From positions 42,514-106,513 of the forward strand of contig JAWKPM010000010.1 in assembly GCA_041390625.1 (NCBI GenBank): a stretch of DNA of 64,000 nt, written 5' to 3'. This document shows, in pieces, positions 4,926-54,792 of the stretch (positions within the stretch are counted from its first letter, which is position 1; each line of letters begins with the position of its first letter). Under the pieces are notes generated by a model, which had not been told where the DNA came from, did no database searches, and saw only the letters and a list, made by a program, of their open reading frames with translations. The DNA is from Dehalococcoidia bacterium. GTDB taxonomy: Bacteria > Chloroflexota > Dehalococcoidia > UBA2979. Position numbers and translations under genes: made by a program.

Positions 4926-6005
4926 ATGAAGTGGCTCGCGTTCCTCGGATTCCTGGTTGTGGCCTCGATGGTCGTGGGGTGCCGGGACGAGGACCTCGAC
5001 GGCGTCGAGCGCGCCTCGAGGGTTGCGGCGGCGCGGGCGGAGGCGGCGCGGCTCCACGAGGGGGCCTCGTTCGGGATTCAGCGGTGGAACGAAGTGGACT
5101 CGGTCGAGCCTCTGAACGAGGTGGCGGGGTTCGATGTCGTCGTGCCTCGAGGGTTGCCGGACGGGTTCACCGTCGACTGGGTCGTGGCGCAGCCGCCGGT
5201 CGTCGAGCCGAACGGCGGTCAGACGCTCACGATCGCAGTGGTGGCGGTCTCCGCGCGCGCCCGTGAAGGCGTGATCCAGGTGATCGAATCGAGCCGGCCG
5301 CCCGACGAAACCACTGCAGGCACGCAGGTCGCGATCGGCACGACGGTCGGTCGCCTGAGCTACCCACGCTCGGCGGGGGACGGGAGCCCGTTCGCCCAGG
5401 TGGCGTTCACGGGTTGCGGCCTCGGACTGGGGGTGACGACGTACAACCTCGAGACGGGGCCGACCTTCACTGCCGACGAGGTGGTCATCGTGGCGGAGGC
5501 GACGTTCGAGTCGTGTGACGCGGAGCCCGAGGGCGAGTCCCTCGACACACGCTACTTCGTCATCAAGCGTGACGACGCGGTGCCGGATCTGGCTGCGTTC
5601 GAGGCACAGATGGGCATCGACGTCACGCTGCCGACGTACCTGCCGGAACGCGTGACGCCACGTTTCCTCTACGGGTTCCCGTTGTTGCCCGGAACCGGCA
5701 GCAGGCGCGAGAGCCACAGTGTCGCGACGGTGTACGGGCTTGGAGCGAGCGGATCGTTCGTGCTCGCGCAGGAGAGCGCTCGCAACGAGATGGGCGAGGG
5801 CGAGGGCGTCGATGTTGGAGGCGTGCGGGGACACCTCGCGCGATTCGACCCGGCCGATGGTCGCCCGTGGCGACTGACGTGGGAGGCGTGCGACCTCGCG
5901 TTCTCGCTCGAAGTGCCGTCGTTCGATGGGGTGCCGGGTGCGAGCTCGCTCGCGGACGAGGAGCTGATTCGCATGGCGGCCTCGATCGTCGAGGGATGCG
6001 AATGA
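4926..6005 (+). CDS. Lipoprotein, two-repeat paralog family (LolA/DUF4367-like, tentative), copy 1
   Basis: Signal peptide plus lipobox (LVVASMVVGC). Has two internal repeats with the GFDVV.P.GLP / IDVTLPTYLP motif and a C-terminal ...AASIVEGCE. Paralogous to 7582-8664, 8730-9331 and 9979-10617. Confidence 0.7.
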   Translation: MKWLAFLGFLVVASMVVGCRDEDLDGVERASRVAAARAEAARLHEGASFGIQRWNEVDSVEPLNEVAGFDVVVPRGLPDGFTVDWVVAQPPVVEPNGGQTLTIAVVAVSARAREGVIQVIESSRPPDETTAGTQVAIGTTVGRLSYPRSAGDGSPFAQVAFTGCGLGLGVTTYNLETGPTFTADEVVIVAEATFESCDAEPEGESLDTRYFVIKRDDAVPDLAAFEAQMGIDVTLPTYLPERVTPRFLYGFPLLPGTGSRRESHSVATVYGLGASGSFVLAQESARNEMGEGEGVDVGGVRGHLARFDPADGRPWRLTWEACDLAFSLEVPSFDGVPGASSLADEELIRMAASIVEGCE

Positions 6006-6157
6006 CCTCGATGGGCCGATGGTGCTGAATCCGGGACTCGCGACGATGATCGTGGTAACTGACGAGTCTGACGGGCCTCGGTGGTGCGTCGGGGTCGATC
6101 ACGGCAGGGTGTCGCTTCTCGCCGGATGCGTCGCGCTGCCTCGATGCGGGGTGTCGC

Positions 6158-6805
6158 GTGACACAGTCGCCGGCCGGCACGGACGTTCCTGAGGGCGAGC
6201 TCGCCGACGGCGAACTCGTGCGGGTGGTGTACGTCACGGAGCCGGTGGAGCGGCCGTTCGTCGCGCGAGTGGAACACTCCTCGGCGGAGACGACCTCGAT
6301 CGATCTCTTCCGGCTGCCGGGGCGCCAGACGCCGCCGGGGCGCGGCGAGCCGATCGTGATCGTTGCGGACCACCGCACGCCTCGACGGGCGTTCGAGGCG
6401 CACGTGCTCGCGGTCCGGCCGACGCCGCCTCGAATGGAGGTGACGCGGCCGGTCGAGGCGCAGCGGGACGAGCGACGATCGGCGCCTCGGGTGCCGTACG
6501 TCCTCGAGTTCGAGGGCACCGTGCCGGGCGTCACCGGCGTGGCGAGCACGTTCCGCGGCAAGACGCAGGACCTCAGCCGGCGCGGCGCCGCCCTGAGCGC
6601 GGACATCGACCTCCCCCCGGACACGGAAGTGGCGCTGCACGTCCTGCTCGGCGACGAGAGCCCGCCGCTCGCGGTACAGGCGGTCACCCTGCCTCGGATC
6701 GCGCGCGGACGGGCGCGGGGGGCGCTGCGCGTGCGCTTCACCTCGGGCGATGGCGACGCGTTCGCACGCCTCGAGACGATGCTCGAGCAGGCCTCGGGCT
6801 CCTGA
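6158..6805 (+). CDS. PilZ domain protein (c-di-GMP receptor) with a ~100-aa N-terminal extension
   Basis: GTG start. PilZ signature RRSAPR ... DLSRRGAAL (RxxxR ... D/NxSxxG). Confidence 0.75.
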   Translation: MTQSPAGTDVPEGELADGELVRVVYVTEPVERPFVARVEHSSAETTSIDLFRLPGRQTPPGRGEPIVIVADHRTPRRAFEAHVLAVRPTPPRMEVTRPVEAQRDERRSAPRVPYVLEFEGTVPGVTGVASTFRGKTQDLSRRGAALSADIDLPPDTEVALHVLLGDESPPLAVQAVTLPRIARGRARGALRVRFTSGDGDAFARLETMLEQASGS

Positions 6806-6818
6806 TACCGCTTCGATG

Positions 6819-6839
6819 CCCGCCTCTTCTCGGGGCGGG
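6819..6839 (+). terminator. GC-rich hairpin (CCCGCC-N9-GGCGGG) 14 nt after the PilZ stop; no U-tract
   Basis: Inverted repeat read directly from the sequence. Lacks a T-run, so only terminator-like. Confidence 0.35.
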
Positions 6840-6989
6840 TGGGTTCGATCCCGCGGACCTCGACGCCCGGCCGAAGCGCCATGCATCGGCATCACGAATG
6901 AAGGTATAGACCATCACATTCCTGACGATGATCTGACATCCTGACGTCCATCTGACGTCCATTGCAGGTCGAGTCCGGGAGCGTCCCCC

Positions 6990-7529
6990 ATGCAAGTCGT
7001 GCTCTGCGATACGTGCCACCAACCCCTCGGCGGGCGAACCACCGAGATGCACCTGTTCTTCGGGGAGGCGTTCTCGACGCACGACGGTCGCGCTCGGGTG
7101 GCGCACCGCGGGACCTCGAAGGTGTTCAACCTCTGCCAGGGGTGCGGATCCTGGCTCGAGGGGGCGCTGAAGCACCTGCGCGCCTCACACGACCGCCGCA
7201 CGTCGCCTCGGATTCCCGTTGCCCTGGAAGTGGAGGGCATCGTCCTCGACCGAGCGGGGCTGGCGAGCACGTTCCACGCGCGGACGATCAACCTGAGCCA
7301 GGGCGGCGCCGCGCTTTCGACGAACGTCGACATCCCGGCGGGCACCGAGGTGATGCTCCGCTTCCTCGTTGTCGACAAGTCCTTCGAACTTCGAGCGGTG
7401 GCACTGCCTCGGATCGCACCGAGCGGGGATCCGCCGTTGCGTGTTCGCTTCACGGCGAACGACGACCGAGCGCTGGATTGCCTGGACCAGGTGCTGCGCG
7501 CGGCGGCGTCCGCCTCGAGGGCCGCGTAG
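6990..7529 (+). CDS. Zinc-ribbon-PilZ domain protein (c-di-GMP receptor)
   Basis: N-terminal CDTC...CQGC ribbon, then PilZ motifs RRTSPR ... NLSQGGAAL. Confidence 0.75.
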   Translation: MQVVLCDTCHQPLGGRTTEMHLFFGEAFSTHDGRARVAHRGTSKVFNLCQGCGSWLEGALKHLRASHDRRTSPRIPVALEVEGIVLDRAGLASTFHARTINLSQGGAALSTNVDIPAGTEVMLRFLVVDKSFELRAVALPRIAPSGDPPLRVRFTANDDRALDCLDQVLRAAASASRAA

Positions 7530-7581
7530 GCCCGGCCCGGCTCTACACTCCCCGCCACGATCGCGCAGGCCGGGAGGGCAC

Positions 7582-8664
7582 ATGACCGGGCGGAGCGGGG
7601 CGCTCGCGCTGCTGGGGTGCCTGGCGCTGGCCTCGATGCTCGCGGGGTGCCGCGACGAGGACCTCGATGACGTCGAGCGCGCCTCGAGGAACGAGGCGGC
7701 GCGGGCCGAGGCGGCACGGCTGCACGAGGGCGCCACGTACTTCCTGATGGACGTGGCAGAGCTCGATGGCGCGGCGGCGCTGAGTGCAGCCGTCGGCTTC
7801 GACGTCGTCATGCCCCGGGGGCTGCCGGAGGGCCTCGAGGTGAGCGTGGTCATCGGACAGGCGGCGCAGCCCTTCGATGGCGCGTCGTCGCCGGCACTGG
7901 CGAGCGTGACGATGTTCCGCCGTGGCATTGATGGCCTGGTGCAGCTGCTCGAGCTCGAGGGACCGATGGACCCGAGCACGGCCGGTGAGGACGTCGCCCT
8001 TGGTGACGGCGTCGGGCGCCTCGCGGAAGCAACCGGCGAGGGGTCGCCCGGCCGCTTCACCACGCTGACGTTCGAGGGGTGCGGCCTCACCCTCGCGATC
8101 TCGATGCTCGGGCTCGACGCCGAGGGCCCGCCGATCACGCGCGACCAGGCGATCGCGATGGGCACCGCGACGCGCGCCGGCTGCGCAGAACCGCTCCCGG
8201 AGACACCGGTCGTGCGGTACTTCCAGCAGCGACTGGTCGACCTGCCGGACCGTGCTGCCTTCGACGCGAGGGCGGGCTTCGATGTGGTCCTGCCCTCCTA
8301 CCTGCCGCCCGACGCGATGCCGACGTGGGTGACGGGACAGCCGTTCCTGCCCGGCTTCAACGGGGAGCCGGACGGCCGCGGGGCGCAGGCGGTGTACGGC
8401 CTCGATGGGGGGACGCTGCTGCTGACGGAGGGCACGAGACGCCTCGACGTCTCGGCGGGCACGGTGGTCGCGGTGGGCGACCGCAGCGGGCGGCTGCTGC
8501 GCGAGGCCTCGGAGGACGGGGTGCAGCTGATGCTGGCGTGGGAGGGCTGCGGCCTCGAGTTTGCTCTGACGGCGCTGTCGTTCAACGGGGCCGCGGACGG
8601 GCCGCCGCTCGACGAGACGGAACTCGTGCGCATCGCGGCATCGATGCTCGACGGGTGCGAGTGA
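7582..8664 (+). CDS. Lipoprotein, two-repeat paralog family, copy 2
   Basis: Internal ATG at 7582 preceded by GGGAGGG. Lipobox LASMLAGC. The first 25 mature residues are near-identical to copy 1 (CRDEDLD.VERASR..AARAEAARLHEGA). Repeats GFDVVMPRGLPEG and GFDVVLPSYLPPD. C-terminus IAASMLDGCE. Confidence 0.75.
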   Translation: MTGRSGALALLGCLALASMLAGCRDEDLDDVERASRNEAARAEAARLHEGATYFLMDVAELDGAAALSAAVGFDVVMPRGLPEGLEVSVVIGQAAQPFDGASSPALASVTMFRRGIDGLVQLLELEGPMDPSTAGEDVALGDGVGRLAEATGEGSPGRFTTLTFEGCGLTLAISMLGLDAEGPPITRDQAIAMGTATRAGCAEPLPETPVVRYFQQRLVDLPDRAAFDARAGFDVVLPSYLPPDAMPTWVTGQPFLPGFNGEPDGRGAQAVYGLDGGTLLLTEGTRRLDVSAGTVVAVGDRSGRLLREASEDGVQLMLAWEGCGLEFALTALSFNGAADGPPLDETELVRIAASMLDGCE

Positions 8665-8729
8665 CCTCGTTGGTGCGATTCATCCTCGAGGCGGACGCGA
8701 TGCTGCGCGGGCGGCCGTAGCCTCGAGGC

Positions 8730-9331
8730 ATGCGCGTCGCCTCGACGATCCCGGTGGTGCTGGCCTCGATGATCGTCCTCGGGTGCACGAGCGGCGGGGA
8801 TGGTGTGCCAGTGGCCGAGGACGCGACGTTCGAGTGGTGGGATGGGGAGCAGACGCACGCGCGGGTCCCGATCGAGGGCGGCCTCGATGGGGTGGCGGAG
8901 CGCCTCGAGTTTGAGCGGTGCTGCCCTCGGAACTGCCGCACGGGATGGAGTTGCGCTCCGTGCTCGCGATCGGGATGACGTTCGGCGATCAAACGGCACC
9001 AGGCCTGACCTCGGTGCAGCTCGAACTCCGCGACGACGAGAACGCACACCGTCTGTCGCTCGGGGAGCACCAAACGGAGCCGGGCCGGGGGCCGTCGCTC
9101 GCGTTGAACGGGGCGCGCGACGTCGAGATCGCGGGCGTCCCCGTGCGGCGGCACAATCGACCGCCGGAGCCAGGGTGGCCGGATGGCCTGCGCCTGGCCT
9201 CGTGGGTGGCGTGCGGGCTCGAGTTCGGCCTCGGGGGGCCGTTCACCGAGTTCAGCGGGCCGGAGTTCGAGGCGGTCGTGGCCTCGATCATCGAGGCGTG
9301 TGAGGGAGAGCGAGCCTCGGGGGTGCGTTGA
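8730..9331 (+). pseudogene. Frameshifted paralog of the lipoprotein family (single-repeat form)
   Basis: Signal peptide and lipobox (LASMIVLGC) in frame 3 to ~8900 (..LDGVAERLEFE). The homologous continuation (VLPSELPHGMEL ... VVASIIEACEGE) is in frame 2 (8918-9331). Implies a +/-1 frameshift near 8900-8930. Confidence 0.55.
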
Positions 9332-9425
9332 ACCTGTTCATACGTGATCGTTTCAACGTTGATCATAGTTTAGTGCCTGCTAATGTCACCTCGATGTTTT
9401 GACTGCTGCATCGATGGAGGCAGGT

Positions 9426-9938
9426 ATGCACGTTCGACTGATTCGCATCGGGGCGGTGGCCCTGATGCTCGCGACCGCCCTCGTGTTCGTCGGCTGCTCG
9501 GACGACGAGGCCGACGAGCCGGTGGCAGGCGGCGATCCAACGGCGGCCGCGGATCCCGAGGCCGACCCGGAGGCGGACCCGGTCGCCGGCGGCGGGCACG
9601 AGGTGGGGACGCTCACCAACTTCGACGAGACGGTCGAGGTCGACCTGATGGAGTGGGCCGTGAACCCTGACCGCGCCTCGGTGCCGGCCGGGCTCGTCCG
9701 CTTCGTGGCAACGAACGACGGCAGCGAGGTGCACGAGTTCGTGCTGATCGAGGGCACCTCGAAGGACGGCGAGGAGGTGACGGAGATCGAGGGCATCGCG
9801 CCGGGCGACAGCCGCGAGATTGCCGCCCGCCTCGAGCCGGGGACGTACCAGCTGGCGTGCCTGATCGTGGAGGTCGAGGGCGGTGAGACCGAGGACCACT
9901 ACGACCTCGGGATGCACATCGAGTTCACGGTGGAGTGA
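9426..9938 (+). CDS. Cupredoxin-like lipoprotein (EfeO-N-terminal 'Cup'-like), paralog of 53002-53703
   Basis: ATG at 9426 is 5 nt after GGAGG. Lipobox LVFVGC. The C-terminal ~100 aa align with the EfeU-coupled protein (EWAV.P....AG.VRFVA.N.....HE..L......LEPGTYQLACLI...GE.TEDHY..GMH.EFTVE). Confidence 0.7.
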   Translation: MHVRLIRIGAVALMLATALVFVGCSDDEADEPVAGGDPTAAADPEADPEADPVAGGGHEVGTLTNFDETVEVDLMEWAVNPDRASVPAGLVRFVATNDGSEVHEFVLIEGTSKDGEEVTEIEGIAPGDSREIAARLEPGTYQLACLIVEVEGGETEDHYDLGMHIEFTVE

Positions 9939-9978
9939 GCCCGCGCGCCTCGGCCTTCGATGTAGCATCGAGGGCGTG

Positions 9979-10617
9979 ATGATTGCGCGGTTCGCGGAGT
10001 GGCGGAGCGCCTCGGCGGTGGCCGGGGCGCTCGTCGTCTCCGCGCTGGCCTCGATGGTCGTGGCGTGCTCGGACGGCGGGGACGCTGGTGGCGTGCCGGT
10101 GGCCTCGGATGCCGCATTCATGGTGGTCGAGTCCGACGGGTCGAGACGGGCCGTCGATCACCTCGAGGCGTTGCTCGAGCTGGCAGCGTTCGAGGTGGTG
10201 CTTCCCGCCTCGCTGCCTGAAGGCGTCGAGCTGCAGAGCGCGCAGTTGACGCTGCCCGACCCTCGATTCGAGTCGATGGCGCCCTTCGCCCGAGCGCGCG
10301 CCACGCCGGTGCTTCTCAGCTTTCGGGGCCCCGGCGAGGATGCGGCGCGCGGCTTCGCGGTGATGGAGTACGAGGCCGCCGGCGGCAGTCCGACCACCAT
10401 CGGCGACGCAGGCGCGATCGCCTTCGAGCTGCCCGGTGCCGAGGGTGCTCAACTCCTCGACCTGCCGCTCGATGGCAGGCGAGCGCAGTCGGGGACGTCC
10501 GTCGTGTGGCGCGCGTGTGGCGTCGACTTCGCATTGACAGCGCCGGGGTCAGACGTGATGCCTCGGGAGGAGGTGCTCGACCTCGCGCAGGCGTTCATCA
10601 CGGGGTGCGGGTCGTGA
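9979..10617 (+). CDS. Lipoprotein paralog, single-repeat form (copy 4)
   Basis: Lipobox LASMVVAC. Repeat motif LAAFEVVLPASLPEGVEL. Conserved C-terminus LDLAQAFITGCGS. Confidence 0.7.
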   Translation: MIARFAEWRSASAVAGALVVSALASMVVACSDGGDAGGVPVASDAAFMVVESDGSRRAVDHLEALLELAAFEVVLPASLPEGVELQSAQLTLPDPRFESMAPFARARATPVLLSFRGPGEDAARGFAVMEYEAAGGSPTTIGDAGAIAFELPGAEGAQLLDLPLDGRRAQSGTSVVWRACGVDFALTAPGSDVMPREEVLDLAQAFITGCGS

Positions 10618-10643
10618 GGTCGCGGCTGGGGTAGCATCGCGGC

Positions 10644-11357
10644 ATGACGGCCGTCGTGTCGGAAGTACGTGAGCGGGTGGCGGCGGTGCGTGCGCGCATC
10701 GAGGCGGCGTGCGCGCGGGCGGGGCGCGACCCGGGCGAGGTGACACTCATCGCGGTGTCGAAGACGTTCGGCCTCGATGCGGTGGAGGCGGCGCTCGAGG
10801 CCGGGATCACCGACTTCGGAGAGAACCGGGCGCAGCAGCTGGTGCCGAAGGCGGAAGGCGCGGCCTCGATGGGGTTGCGGCCTCGATGGCACTTCATCGG
10901 ACACCTGCAGCGGAACAAGGCACGCGACGTCGTACCGCACATCGTGGCGCTGCACTCGGTCGACTCGCCACGCCTCGTGACGGCGATCTCGCGAGAAATC
11001 ATGCGCATCGGCGAGCATGGGGCGGCTGCCGATGCGGCAGGGTCGTTGCGCTGTTACCTTGAGGTGAACGTGGCCGGTGAGGCCTCGAAGGAGGGCGTGG
11101 CGCCGGACGCGCTGCCGGCGCTCCTCGAGGCGGCGCGGGCCGCGGACGGCGTCGAGGTCGCGGGGCTGATGACGGTGGCCCCGCTGGCGGCCTCGGCGGA
11201 GGCGGCGCGGCCGGTGTTCGCGGCGCTGCGGGAGCTGGCGAGGTCGCACGGCCTCGATGGGCTCTCGATGGGGATGACGAACGACTTCGAGGTCGCGATC
11301 GAAGAGGGCGCGACCATGGTGCGGGTGGGGCGCGCGATCTTCGGGGAGCGCGACTAG
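10644..11357 (+). CDS. YggS-family pyridoxal-phosphate homeostasis protein (PLPBP)
   Basis: Full-length match to the YggS/PROSC pattern (VTLIAVSKT...GENRAQ...[10 protein letters not shown]...[10 protein letters not shown]). Confidence 0.9.
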
Positions 11358-48551: not shown

Positions 48552-49325
48552 TTATAGCGTCGCCTCCGGGCTGAGCGCCGGCACCGACGTCGCGCCGCGC
48601 TTCAGGTAGGTGATGAGCAGCCACGCGACCGCGGTGTAGAGACCCACCAGCACGAGGATCGTCCAGTCGCCCAGGGTCCATTCGACGCCGATGCCCTCGC
48701 CGCCCCAGAACGTGCCAAACGCAACGAGCATGAGCCCGACGGTGAACTTGATCGTGTTCTCCGGCACGCGCGTGAGCGGCCTGTGCACCACGAGACCCAC
48801 CACGGCGACGAGGGCGAAGGCCAGGGCCGCACCGAGCGCGCTCCAGCCGAGTGCATTCTCCCGGTTGGCGGCAAACGTGAGGACGATGAAGGCGACCTCT
48901 AGGCCCTCGAGGAAGACGCCTTTGAAGGCGACGACGAAGCCCGTCCAGTCGATGTCGGTCGTCGACGGAGTAGCCGCGGAGCCTCGAAGCAGCGCGACCT
49001 CCTCCTCGAAGATCGCCGCCTCGTCGTGCTTCGCCTTCACGCCGGCAGCGCGCATGATCGCCTTGCGGAGCCACTGCAGGCCGAAGACGAGCAGTAGCAC
49101 CCCGATCAGGGTCTGCAGGCCTTCGATCGGGATGACCTGCACGAGCGCGGGGCCGAGGGCCAGCACGACCACCGTGAGCGCGACCGACGCCAGTGCCGTC
49201 CCGAGGAAGGCAGTGCGCCAGCCGTTGGTGAGGGCAACAGCGAGGACGATGGTCAGCGCCTCGACGGCCTCGACGGCGGAGGCGAGGAAGACCGCGACGA
49301 CGACCAGGGCGATCTCGTGGCTCAT
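48552..49325 (-). CDS. Membrane protein with two internally repeated ExxE-containing halves (possible cation transporter)
   Basis: ATGA overlap with the upstream ChrB-like gene. N-half SAVEAVEALTIV and C-half FLEGLEVAFIV. About 6 TM helices. Confidence 0.55.
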   Translation of the reverse strand: MSHEIALVVVAVFLASAVEAVEALTIVLAVALTNGWRTAFLGTALASVALTVVVLALGPALVQVIPIEGLQTLIGVLLLVFGLQWLRKAIMRAAGVKAKHDEAAIFEEEVALLRGSAATPSTTDIDWTGFVVAFKGVFLEGLEVAFIVLTFAANRENALGWSALGAALAFALVAVVGLVVHRPLTRVPENTIKFTVGLMLVAFGTFWGGEGIGVEWTLGDWTILVLVGLYTAVAWLLITYLKRGATSVPALSPEATL

Positions 49326-49915
49326 GGAGCGGACCTCCGCATCGGCGTGACGCGGCCCTCGACGGGTGCGGGCGCATCGGCGGCGGTGGCGCCCTCGTTC
49401 CCCTCGTACGCGTTCTCGAGGTAGCGCTCCAGACGCGCAGCGGCAGCCTCGACGGCCGCCTCGGCCTCGCTGCGGGCGGCCACGCCACCGAGGTCGCGGC
49501 GAACGACGCGCGCCAGCTGGCGCCTCACCTTGTCGAGCTCCTCCTCGAGGCTCTCGACCTCGGCAAAGCGGTAGTCGCCGTCGTCGTCCTCCTGCGCGAT
49601 GTGGGCGGCCAGCTTGCGGGCGCTCTTGATGACCTGCAGGTACTCCTCGTGGCGGGCCGCGCCGAACGCGTCGTCAACGGTGGCGCGATCGACCTCGGTG
49701 AGCGCGGCGGCACGGAACGAGACGGCGAGACCGCCGCCCTGCGTCACGCGCTCGGTAAGGCGTTCGAGCAGCTCGACGTACTCGGCGCGCTCGGGCAGCG
49801 CGTAGAGGCCACTACCGATGCCGACGGCACCGTGCTGCCTGAGCTCGCGCCAGACGGCGACACGCAAGGCGCTGGGCTGCGACGGCACGCGGTAGGAGAA
49901 GAGCAGCCATTGCAC
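49322..49915 (-). CDS. ChrB N-terminal domain protein (chromate-resistance regulator-like)
   Basis: MQWLLFSYRVPSQPSALRVAVWRELRQHGAV...GLYALP is the ChrB-domain N-terminal signature. Confidence 0.65.
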   Translation of the reverse strand: MQWLLFSYRVPSQPSALRVAVWRELRQHGAVGIGSGLYALPERAEYVELLERLTERVTQGGGLAVSFRAAALTEVDRATVDDAFGAARHEEYLQVIKSARKLAAHIAQEDDDGDYRFAEVESLEEELDKVRRQLARVVRRDLGGVAARSEAEAAVEAAAARLERYLENAYEGNEGATAADAPAPVEGRVTPMRRSAP

Positions 49916-53001: not shown

Positions 53002-53703
53002 CTACTCGACGGTGAACTCCGTGTGCATGCCGGAGGCGTAGTGGTCCTCGGTTGAGCCGGCCTCGCCCGGGGCGATCAGACAGGCCAGCTGGTAGGTACC
53101 GGGCTCGAGGGTGGCGACGACCTCGCCGCTCTGGCCCGGCTCGAGGCCCTCGACCTCGGCGATCTCGAAGCGCTCGCCGTTCTCGCCGATCGCGAGGATG
53201 GCGAGCTCGTGGGTCATCGTCTCCGACTCGTTGTGGGCGACGAAGCGGACCGTGCCGGCCTCGACGCTCGGCGCGCTCGGGGTGACGCTCCACTCGGCGA
53301 GCGCGACATCGATGGACGCGGTTGCGGCGGACGGATCCACGGCGGCGCTGCCTTCGCCGGCGACGAGCTCGATGATGGTCGTCGGTCCGTCCGGGCTGTA
53401 GCACTTCACGAGGTAGGTGGCGTCGGTCGCGTCCGGCACCGTGTAGTCGATGTGCCTCGTGCGGCCGTCGGGCACGAGGACTTCCTCGATGCGGGTGCCC
53501 TCGATGCCCTCGAACTCGCGGTCGGCGTTGGCGTGGTTGTTCACGTTGAACGTGATCGCCTCGCCCGGGGTGACGGCGACGGTGGCAGGCGCGCAGGCCT
53601 CGGGTTCGACCTCGATGTCGATTTCTCGGCCCTCGGCGCTGCTGCTGCAGGCGAGAGTGACGATGGCGGTCAGTGCGAGGAGGGTCGCGACGAAGCGCTT
53701 CAT
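53002..53703 (-). CDS. Cupredoxin-like lipoprotein coupled to the FTR1 permease (EfeO-Cup/P19-like role)
   Basis: MKRFVATLLALTAIVTLACSS lipobox. ATGA overlap with the upstream permease stop. Paralog of 9426-9938 (shared C-terminal LEPGTYQLACLI...TEDHY.SGMHTEFTVE). Confidence 0.7.
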   Translation of the reverse strand: MKRFVATLLALTAIVTLACSSSAEGREIDIEVEPEACAPATVAVTPGEAITFNVNNHANADREFEGIEGTRIEEVLVPDGRTRHIDYTVPDATDATYLVKCYSPDGPTTIIELVAGEGSAAVDPSAATASIDVALAEWSVTPSAPSVEAGTVRFVAHNESETMTHELAILAIGENGERFEIAEVEGLEPGQSGEVVATLEPGTYQLACLIAPGEAGSTEDHYASGMHTEFTVE

Positions 53704-54596
53704 CGGGCGTGCTGCCTTTCGGAGTCCCCGGCGTGTCCGCTCGGGGTCGGAGTTTCGTTGGTACCGGCCGGGGCCGGCATGAGCCGCGTGGTCGGATGCG
53801 GCCAGAAGAGGAAGAACGCGACGCCGGAGACCAGGTAGCCCCAGAAGAGCGCGATCTGACCCCAGGTGGGCGCCGGGTCGTAGCCCAGCAGGGTGTGGAA
53901 GAACTTGCCGGAGGCGTCGGTGAGCGACAGCCAGGAGTCCGTGTCCCACGGGCGGCTGCCGAGGTTCGCGATGAAACCGGACTCCTGGAGCTCCGCGATG
54001 CCGTTCGAGACCATGCCGGCCGCGATCACGAGGACGGCGATGCCGCTCACGGTGAAGAACTGGCGGAGCGGGAGGCGATGCGAGCCTCGGTAGACGACGT
54101 AGCCGAGGGCTGCCGCCACGGCAAAACCCGCCACGGCGCCGAACCAGAACATCGCGGGCGAGCCAGAGGCTGTCGTTGAGCCGGCGAAGAGGAAGACCCC
54201 GGTCTCGATGCCCTCGCGCATGACGGAGAGGAAGGCGAGGCCGGCGAGCCCCCACCTCGATGAGCCGGAGAGCGCGACGTTGACCTGGCGGCGCAGCTCG
54301 GCGCCGATGCCGGCTGCCTGGCGGCGCATCCAGAACACCATCCAGGTCAGGACAACGACGGCGACGAGCATCATCACGCCCTCGAAGGCCTCGCTGGCGG
54401 CGGGCGAGAGGTCACGCGATGTCACCTCGAGGGCGACGACGACGACCGAGGAGAGGGCGACCGCGAGCCCGGCGCCGAGCCAGACCCGACCGAAGTGGGC
54501 GCGGTTGCCCGTGCGAGCGAGGTAGCCCAGGACGATCGCCAGCACGAGCGCGATCTCGAAGCCCTCGCGAAGCGTGATGAGGAATGAGAACAGCAA
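53700..54596 (-). CDS. FTR1/EfeU-family high-affinity iron permease
   Basis: Two REXXE motifs (LREGFEIALVL and VMREGIETGVFL). 7 TM helices. Confidence 0.85.
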   Translation of the reverse strand: MLFSFLITLREGFEIALVLAIVLGYLARTGNRAHFGRVWLGAGLAVALSSVVVVALEVTSRDLSPAASEAFEGVMMLVAVVVLTWMVFWMRRQAAGIGAELRRQVNVALSGSSRWGLAGLAFLSVMREGIETGVFLFAGSTTASGSPAMFWFGAVAGFAVAAALGYVVYRGSHRLPLRQFFTVSGIAVLVIAAGMVSNGIAELQESGFIANLGSRPWDTDSWLSLTDASGKFFHTLLGYDPAPTWGQIALFWGYLVSGVAFFLFWPHPTTRLMPAPAGTNETPTPSGHAGDSERQHAR

Positions 54597-54643
54597 TGGA
54601 TGCCCCCGCGGCAGCCGTCACGCTGTATCAGCAGCGTCACGTT

Positions 54644-54658
54644 GTTAGCATGACCTAC
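54644..54658. promoter_or_regulatory. Candidate DtxR/IdeR-type iron box upstream of the FTR1 operon
   Basis: On the gene strand it reads TAGGTCATGCTAACA, which matches 13 of 17 positions of TAGGTTAGGCTAACCTA. It lies in a lower-GC promoter region. Confidence 0.3.
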
Positions 54659-54792
54659 CTTCCGTCTATTGTCGAACCTACCACAAGGGAAATGTGTGTC
54701 CCCCACGAGGCACGCAGAGGGCCCCCTCCTCGTGAGGAGGTCGGCGATGGGCGCGGCCGCGGGGCCTGAAGGGTCGAGGTCGCGGGGGAGCG

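Follow-up and report, generated by a model that had tools for sequence, protein, structure and literature searches.

Which protein oxidizes Fe(II) in bacterial transporters of the FTR1/EfeU type is the question at stake at two loci of a Dehalococcoidia bacterium (contig JAWKPM010000010.1), both of which lie in the 64-kb window, i.e., the whole stretch of 64,000 nucleotides (nt) that was analyzed. At one of them, a two-domain lipoprotein, CupB, is encoded together with an FTR1-type iron permease; at the other, a smaller lipoprotein, CupA, is encoded among lipoprotein and PilZ genes, which raises the question of what CupA does there and with which of these genes it works. We give a probability of roughly 0.5 to the reading that CupA is a membrane-tethered type 1 copper protein that is repressed by iron together with FTR1-CupB and serves as a ferroxidase or an electron relay. 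Because CupA and FTR1-CupB share an operator-like site of the iron-repressor type, we consider it most likely that CupA is part of the iron-uptake response rather than of the neighboring lipoprotein set. The coding features of the two loci, numbered within the window, are as follows.

9426..9938, plus strand: CupA gene (ATG at 9426, stop codon included), encoding a 170-amino-acid lipoprotein with a single predicted type 1 cupredoxin domain.
9426..9497, plus strand: signal peptide and lipobox of CupA (VFVGC, Cys24), read from the translation.
9498..9617, plus strand: CupA tether of 40 residues, acidic and rich in Pro, Ala, and Gly, with 12 Asp plus Glu and 0 Lys or Arg (from composition).
9618..9935, plus strand: cupredoxin domain of CupA (residues 65 to 170), with nearly invariant ligand columns that align with auracyanin and ceruloplasmin.
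9732-9734, 9858-9860, 9897-9899, and 9912-9914, plus strand: codons of the predicted CupA ligands His103, Cys145, His158, and Met163, respectively (from family columns).
9861..9896, plus strand: acidic insertion of 12 residues that separates the Cys and His ligands of CupA (LIVEVEGGETED, 5 acidic residues), from loop-length classes and composition.
53002..53703, minus strand: CupB gene, encoding a 233-amino-acid lipoprotein with two cupredoxin-like domains, with an ATGA overlap with the FTR1 stop codon.
53356..53631, minus strand: CupB domain 1 (residues 25 to 116), similar to the Cup domain of EfeO (from alignment A4 and profile matches).
53005..53319, minus strand: CupB domain 2 (residues 129 to 233), a predicted type 1 cupredoxin with a long loop (LIAPGEAGSTED), paralogous to CupA.
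53700..54596, minus strand: FTR1/EfeU-type iron permease with REGFE and REGIE motifs (Pfam FTR1 PF03239; E value, 8e-48).

CupA is a paralog of the copper domain of an FTR1 partner

BLASTP with composition-based statistics aligned residues 69 to 170 of CupA with residues 130 to 233 of CupB, with 55 identities in 104 positions (53%; E value, 3e-33). The initial annotation had noted about 100 C-terminal residues in common between the two lipoproteins, and this similarity was not an artefact of low complexity. The motif strings quoted for the shared part were present in inexact form: CupB reads EWSVTP, not EWAV.P, and two residues, instead of one, stand between DHY and GMH. We also observed the His, Cys, His, and Met residues of a copper site in both proteins. 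The description of CupA as a second copy of the permease-associated lipoprotein had to be abandoned, as CupA has no counterpart of CupB domain 1 and matches only CupB domain 2. In a neighbor-joining tree of the shared domain, CupA and its orthologs (L001/L006) fell outside the FTR1-linked clade and CupB domain 2 fell inside it; a Halococcus protein and a His-rich variant (L028) formed a separate branch, also outside that clade. Because of this placement, CupA is an old paralog lineage of the CupB copper domain, and a recent duplication of CupB domain 2 as the origin of CupA is rejected by the tree.

The ATGA overlap between CupB and a permease with two REGxE motifs was found as annotated. The permease scored 247.9 bits with the NCBIfam EfeU model, against a cut-off of 255. 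Likewise, CupA has no permease partner of its own, since no FTR1 homolog was found near it and tblastn of the window gave only the copy at about 54 kb.

CupB domain 1 makes up about the first 90 residues of the mature protein and is a separate domain, which contains an invariant Cys pair and an E-x-EG...E motif and lacks the His/Met ligand set. It was kept in 14 of the 15 FTR1-linked proteins of other genomes, and the gene was split in the fifteenth (L016). The profile of this domain matched a Cupredoxin_1 protein of B. anthracis (4hcf; E value, 1.4e-3), the Cup domain of EfeO (E value, 4e-3), with its first Cys aligned with that of EfeO, and nitrosocyanin.

Copper ligands and a long acidic loop

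The domain shared by CupA and CupB belongs to a large family, with 6,623 cluster representatives retrieved by profile search at an E value of 1e-3 or lower and 1,434 at 1e-10 or lower. Among 235 domains from the best 150 proteins, the four ligand columns held His in 224, Cys in 229, His in 214, and Met in 212. When the family profile, with CupA as its first sequence, was compared with solved structures, it matched Roseiflexus auracyanin (E value, 1.6e-10), whose ligands coincide with all four conserved columns in the printed alignments. The profile also matched auracyanins A and B, nitrite reductases, rusticyanin, EfeO (E value, 6e-7), and the type 1 sites of ceruloplasmin, in which the Cys, the second His, and the Met coincide with conserved family columns. 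Judged from these columns, both CupA and CupB domain 2 carry the complete type 1 copper ligand set, and CupA has the Greek-key beta-sandwich fold.

The loops known between the Cys and His ligands of characterized type 1 copper proteins span 2 to 7 residues, whereas 12 residues separate Cys145 from His158, and CupA differs from those proteins in loop length. The insertion in CupA was modelled as a beta-hairpin with strands at residues 147 to 149 and 155 to 157. Long loops of this kind were common in the family: among 212 domains with both ligands, 95 showed the pattern C-x4-H-x4-M and 115 had loops of at least 10 residues, 109 of which were 12 to 13 residues long. The long class, which includes both CupA and CupB domain 2, generally contained 3 to 4 acidic residues on average. 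In the 12-residue loops, Gly was nearly invariant at position 8 and the mean number of acidic residues was 3.1, compared with five in CupA.

An intact gene for an acidic, tethered lipoprotein

The CupA gene is preceded by a GGAGG Shine-Dalgarno sequence at 9416-9420, and the N terminus of its product (MHVRLIRIGAVALMLATALVFVGC) looks like the signal peptide of a lipoprotein, with Cys24. The tether that follows was predicted to be disordered, with predicted local distance difference test values below 50 at residues 23 to 49 of the structure model. CupA was the most acidic of the 28 window proteins examined (22% Asp plus Glu, 4% Lys plus Arg, and an isoelectric point of 4.1), and CupB ranked next (17% Asp plus Glu; isoelectric point, 4.2), so that the two head this set. 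We rejected the possibility that CupA is a decaying pseudogene, because its ligands are intact and the ratio of nonsynonymous to synonymous substitution rates was 0.23 against a 75%-identical ortholog, indicating purifying selection. Taken by itself, CupA is an ordinary annotated cupredoxin: a 100%-identical database protein, labelled as from a Dehalococcoidia (Chloroflexota) metagenome-assembled genome, already bears the name "cupredoxin domain-containing protein," and the Pfam model Cupredoxin_1 (PF13473) gave 31.2 bits for CupA and 55.9 bits for CupB against a gathering cut-off of 27. The parts worth following are its link to a regulon and the FTR1 partner with a classical site.

A shared operator-like site upstream of CupA and FTR1

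The spacer upstream of CupA (9332-9425) had a G+C content of 46% in a window of 69% G+C and was its most AT-rich 94-nt stretch, with 0.1% of 94-nt windows being as low. The initial annotation had described this spacer as AT-rich and promoter-like; its base composition bears this out, and the promoter could be recognized by reading, with a score below the threshold of the scan. The regulatory features upstream of the two genes are the following.

9366..9387, no strand assigned: operator-like palindrome of the DtxR/IdeR type with the core TTAGTGCCTGCTAA (9370-9383), 18.2 bits, the best match in the window.
54641..54662, no strand assigned: operator-like palindrome upstream of FTR1, GTAGGTCATGCTAAC on the minus strand, 12.5 bits, the second-best match.
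9359..9386, plus strand: candidate promoter of CupA, TTGATC (9359-9364), a 16-nt spacer, and TAATGT (9381-9386), read from the sequence.

Because the operator was first spotted by eye, it was tested independently with a matrix derived from other genomes. This symmetric 22-nt matrix was built from 17 sites upstream of FTR1 in 14 other Chloroflexota genomes, none of them from the window, and describes the palindrome TTAG-N6-CTAA. The third-best match in the window reached 4.3 bits. Besides, the pattern TAG-N6-CTAA occurred in the window at these two loci only, with 3 matches against 0.25 expected, the palindromic CupA site being counted on both strands. In the 270 nt upstream of FTR1 at 15 other loci, TAG-N6-CTA was found 19 times at 14 loci, compared with 12 times in the remaining 265 kb or so.

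Stand-alone cupredoxin genes at eight further loci have this operator upstream. Matches of at least 14 bits in 269 kb of loci lay solely upstream of FTR1 or beside stand-alone cupredoxin genes. The stand-alone genes of L021 to L024 had an operator upstream (22.5 to 25.8 bits), the Halococcus cupredoxin gene had matches on both sides (16.5 and 19.7 bits), and three further stand-alone members on random metagenome contigs (L035, L036, and L037) had matches of 18.7 to 22.0 bits at their 5' ends. The site was also conserved upstream of the 75%-identical CupA ortholog (L030; 22.0 bits). The matrix scan found no match in L001/L006, L019, the copper-context loci, or the oxidase-linked locus described below.

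The operator type found before both the CupA and the FTR1-CupB loci suggests iron-responsive repression, given that DtxR-family genes are adjacent in relatives and that the site in L010, TTAGCTTAGCCTAAGCTAA, is similar to DtxR boxes in the literature, e.g., TTAGGATAGCTTTACCTAA (PMC524172); control by manganese is also conceivable. A scan with the actinobacterial IdeR/DtxR 19-mer was uninformative, because the locally shuffled control gave more 12/19 matches than the real sequence.

The operator overlaps both the promoter spacer and the candidate -10 hexamer of CupA. We infer this promoter from reading, because its score was below the threshold of the promoter scan; the scan for promoters and terminators around CupA gave no plus-strand promoter and no terminator. 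The -35 hexamer in L030 was identical to that of CupA, with TAACTT as the -10 hexamer, and the spacer from TTGATC to the ATG was 88% identical between the window and L030 (our own count over 67 aligned columns), compared with 80% for the coding region. Two other elements were seen in this spacer. A promoter-like site on the minus strand (9389-9362; GTGACA, 16 nt, TATGAT), the sole sigma-70-like match in 6000-11000, overlaps the operator and has no obvious gene to drive. A palindrome, TCGATG-N12-CATCGA (9392-9415), separates the operator from the Shine-Dalgarno sequence and is kept in L030; as an RNA element it would pair with the Shine-Dalgarno sequence, but its folding was no more stable than that of shuffled sequences (z = -0.14) and we rejected this interpretation.

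Gene context in relatives

The locus search was performed with a 7-sequence alignment, a broad 28-sequence alignment being too diverse, and the loci are therefore biased towards Chloroflexota. A scan of one genome per species gave 24 loci, from 23 Chloroflexota metagenome-assembled genomes and Halococcus thailandensis. An FTR1 gene directly followed by a CupB-type gene was found at 15 other Chloroflexota loci (14 of the 24 scanned plus L005), and in 9 of these 15 a DtxR-family gene stood divergently upstream of FTR1; the Pfam domains of these neighbors were Fe_dep_repress, Fe_dep_repr_C, and FeoA. At one locus (L008, 5124-5645), a third cupredoxin gene follows FTR1-CupB, in which the Cys ligand is replaced by Asp (YVLADQI...DHYQAGMH), recalling the Asp-based copper site of FtrB.

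Stand-alone single-domain relatives recurred in varied contexts; for several family representatives the contig was about 1 kb long and showed few neighboring genes. The 69%-identical CupA ortholog (L001/L006) is monocistronic, with opposite-strand genes on both sides and neither PilZ genes nor lipoprotein paralogs in its vicinity, and the 75%-identical ortholog L030, on a 1.5-kb contig, keeps the order lipoprotein-CupA-lipoprotein. The placement of CupA in the array is thus conserved among close relatives only.

The homolog of Halococcus thailandensis JCM 13552 (L007, 5767-10496) was 58% identical and has a twin-arginine signal and a lipobox. It lies directly upstream of an Fbp/PhnS2-type ATP-binding cassette (ABC) transporter of ambiguous substrate, with operator-like palindromes before both genes, and its occurrence suggests transfer between domains of life.

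Two further contexts were observed. A CupA-like protein bearing an HGGHG insertion is encoded in L028 (1607-6357) and L032, divergently from a CopY/BlaI-type repressor gene and a BlaR1-like gene, with no TTAG-N6-CTAA operator at either locus, and in L028 the P-type ATPase encoded next combines HMA and YHS domains with a Cupredoxin_1 domain at its N terminus. In L038 (319-5951), two long-loop cupredoxin domains occur in one protein, which is encoded near COX2 (with cytochrome c), COX1, and COX3, again with no operator match.

Proposed role of CupA and alternatives

If the operator works as proposed, iron shortage would release a repressor from it and lead to the joint production of FTR1-CupB and CupA. 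On the outer side of the membrane, the copper center would accept one electron from Fe(II). The acidic hairpin is the probable binding place of this Fe(II), along with conserved Glu residues that also occur in the Cup domain of EfeO, and the Fe(III) product would then go to the permease. CupA may add ferroxidase capacity or, on its flexible tether, may relay the electron from CupB to the respiratory chain.

Several points weigh against this role. A mononuclear type 1 copper cannot reduce O2, and the catalytic cycle would therefore need another electron acceptor. CupA lacks domain 1 of CupB, which may dock on the permease. As for the regulation, no DtxR-family gene is present within the window, the actinobacterial IdeR 19-mer matched at 11 of 19 positions at CupA (our own count) and 12 of 19 at FTR1, and the 69%-identical CupA ortholog has no operator, so that operator control is not universal. 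Finally, the long-loop relative beside cytochrome oxidase genes favors a general electron-carrier role.

The main rival develops the last point: CupA would be an auracyanin-like tethered shuttle, induced under iron shortage, that spares iron by replacing an iron-containing carrier such as a c-type cytochrome on the way to a terminal oxidase, and it would not take part in iron uptake directly. This reading accounts equally well for the operator, the tether, and the similarity to auracyanins: the predicted type 1 ligand set is complete, the tether is long and flexible, the best structural and profile matches are auracyanins, and a relative with two long-loop domains stands beside COX2-COX1-COX3. 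Such a carrier is nonetheless rather doubtful, since translational coupling links the same domain to FTR1 in 15 loci, the Glu residues in common with the EfeO Cup domain are kept, the Halococcus homolog lies directly before a transporter, and the oxidase-linked relative has no operator.

A role in copper homeostasis, in which CupA would bind or detoxify extracytoplasmic copper as CopI does, is less likely and indeed improbable. The relative with the HGGHG insertion, divergent from a CopY/BlaI-type repressor gene and a BlaR1-like gene and accompanied by a copper-type P-type ATPase, points in this direction, as does a weak match to the NCBIfam CopI model (19 bits; cut-off, 280). However, CupA has no His/Met-rich segment, no copper-resistance gene lies within 10 kb of it, and the copper-context relatives lack the TTAG-N6-CTAA operator that CupA possesses.

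Membership in a PilZ/lipoprotein envelope module, in which CupA would work and be expressed with the flanking lipoproteins, agrees with its position between two same-strand paralogous lipoprotein genes, the same gene order in the 75%-identical relative, and the 40 nt to the next gene with no predicted terminator, but it is less likely as well and the least probable alternative, given that CupA has its own conserved AT-rich promoter/operator region and is unrelated in sequence to its neighbors, that the more distant ortholog has no such neighbors, and that other stand-alone family members occur in unrelated contexts. The initial annotation had proposed an iron or copper redox accessory recruited into this module; the ligand set and the shared operator speak for the redox accessory, and the recruitment is not supported, on the grounds just given.

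More widely, we tentatively propose that the ferroxidase or electron relay so far lacking from the picture of FTR1/EfeU-type iron uptake in prokaryotes, and perhaps from that of some ABC-type systems, may be a large class of blue copper cupredoxins marked by an acidic hairpin of 12 to 13 residues between Cys and His. They would occur either fused or coupled to the permease (CupB type) or as tethered proteins on their own (CupA type), under one DtxR-type operator, in Chloroflexota and at least one haloarchaeon, a scope that we put forward with the same reserve. A permease coupled to a cupredoxin with a full classical ligand set and an acidic hairpin offers a simple test system of two or three genes, and Halococcus thailandensis JCM 13552, a cultured haloarchaeon with the 58%-identical homolog, is a possible experimental host. 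Furthermore, the palindrome supplies a defined operator motif for studying DtxR-type regulation in the Chloroflexota, of which few members are in culture.

Genes around CupA and FTR1

CupA stands among paralogous lipoproteins beside two PilZ genes, as the initial annotation had stated and as its flanks confirm. The array (4926-10617, plus strand) begins with a two-module lipoprotein (4926-6005), two PilZ genes (6158-6805 and 6990-7529), and a second two-module lipoprotein (7582-8664), which is 43% identical to the first. It ends with single-module paralogs on both sides of CupA, followed by yggS, proC, yggT, and recA. The array lipoproteins gave no significant Pfam match, the only hit being a sub-threshold match of 4926-6005 to DUF4245, and CupA showed no sequence relation to the lipoproteins that flank it.

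8730..9331, plus strand: upstream neighbor of CupA, a frameshifted single-module lipoprotein paralog, given as context only.
9979..10617, plus strand: downstream neighbor, a single-module lipoprotein paralog 40 nt after the CupA stop codon, with an ortholog downstream in L030.

In the upstream neighbor, the frame with the signal peptide (8730-8978) runs into a stop codon and homology resumes in the frame 8918-9331; adding a single base near 8912-8917 would re-create ...LEFE(A)VLPSELP..., so that this is either a pseudogene or an error of assembly. Since L030 keeps the gene order, CupA may be cotranscribed with the downstream lipoprotein. The window also encodes, some 4 kb away from the FTR1 locus, a membrane protein (48552-49915, minus strand) that has OFeT_1/GDT1-like matches and is paired with a ChrB_N-domain protein; the matrix gave no operator match near it.

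Comparison with known systems

Cupredoxin domains of this kind have been grouped in a Cup-I/II/III scheme (PMC11966278 and PMC9174327). The two studied cupredoxin partners, the Cup domain of EfeO and FtrB, lack the classical copper ligands, which the authors of the FtrB study regarded as a main concern (PMC11966278). Our literature search, which was incomplete, gave no report of an FTR1 partner with a classical type 1 site, of this loop class, or of a DtxR-type operator in Chloroflexota.

FtrB of Brucella abortus ("Cup-II"; PDB 8VUK) has no His-His-Cys set and uses Asp118 and His121 (PMC11966278), and no sequence-level match between CupA and the 8VUK protein was found. In contrast to the FtrABCD operon, the neighborhoods of CupA and CupB contain no genes for P19 (FtrA) or a polyferredoxin (FtrD). 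CopI has a Cupredoxin_1-type fold with a Cys/His/Met site, as CupA does; CupA differs in its low score with the CopI model (19.3 bits against a cut-off of 280), in having no His/Met-rich region, and in its context, which is not one of copper resistance.

The auracyanins of Chloroflexus and Roseiflexus are classical, membrane-tethered type 1 copper proteins, which act as respiratory or photosynthetic carriers; we know of no link between them and iron uptake or DtxR-type control. The loop is short in the auracyanin of Roseiflexus (C-x4-H-x4-M), whereas CupA has C-x12-H-x4-M with the acidic hairpin. Fet3p and ceruloplasmin place a type 1 copper beside an acidic Fe(II)-binding pocket, as we propose for CupA. 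In Fet3p of yeast, Fe(II) binds in this pocket and the resulting Fe(III) is passed to Ftr1p, a permease of the FTR1 family (PMC11817551). These oxidases reduce O2 at a trinuclear copper cluster, whereas CupA and CupB would have single copper sites.

The EfeUOB system is among the closest known ones. Its layout is not reproduced here, since CupA has no nearby permease and CupB has an EfeU-like FTR1 but no EfeB neighbor. EfeO ends in an M75 domain and acts together with the EfeB peroxidase, whereas CupA and CupB have neither, and the NCBIfam EfeO model gave 47.5 bits for CupA against a cut-off of 270, covering model positions 13 to 91 of 359 with no M75 domain. The "Cup-I" domain of EfeO is resembled by CupB domain 1, including the Cys pair, and not by CupA. 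When HMMER aligned the family profile with EfeO of E. coli, E104, E120, and E122 of CupA corresponded to E41, E53, and E55 of the EfeO chain, the last two of which are Glu78 and Glu80 by our own mapping (an offset of +25). These two belong to the four Glu residues that have been proposed to form ferric site II in the Cup domain (PMC9174327). In the N-terminal cupredoxin of E. coli EfeO ("Cup-I"; PDB 7WGU), however, Leu aligns with His103 of CupA, and the second His and the Met ligand are lacking, as the cupredoxin part ends just after the Cys. Because EfeO has Leu in place of His103 and no equivalent of His158 or Met163, the CupA domain stands between the "Cup-I" type of EfeO and classical blue copper proteins in sequence, and by its predicted ligands it is classical.

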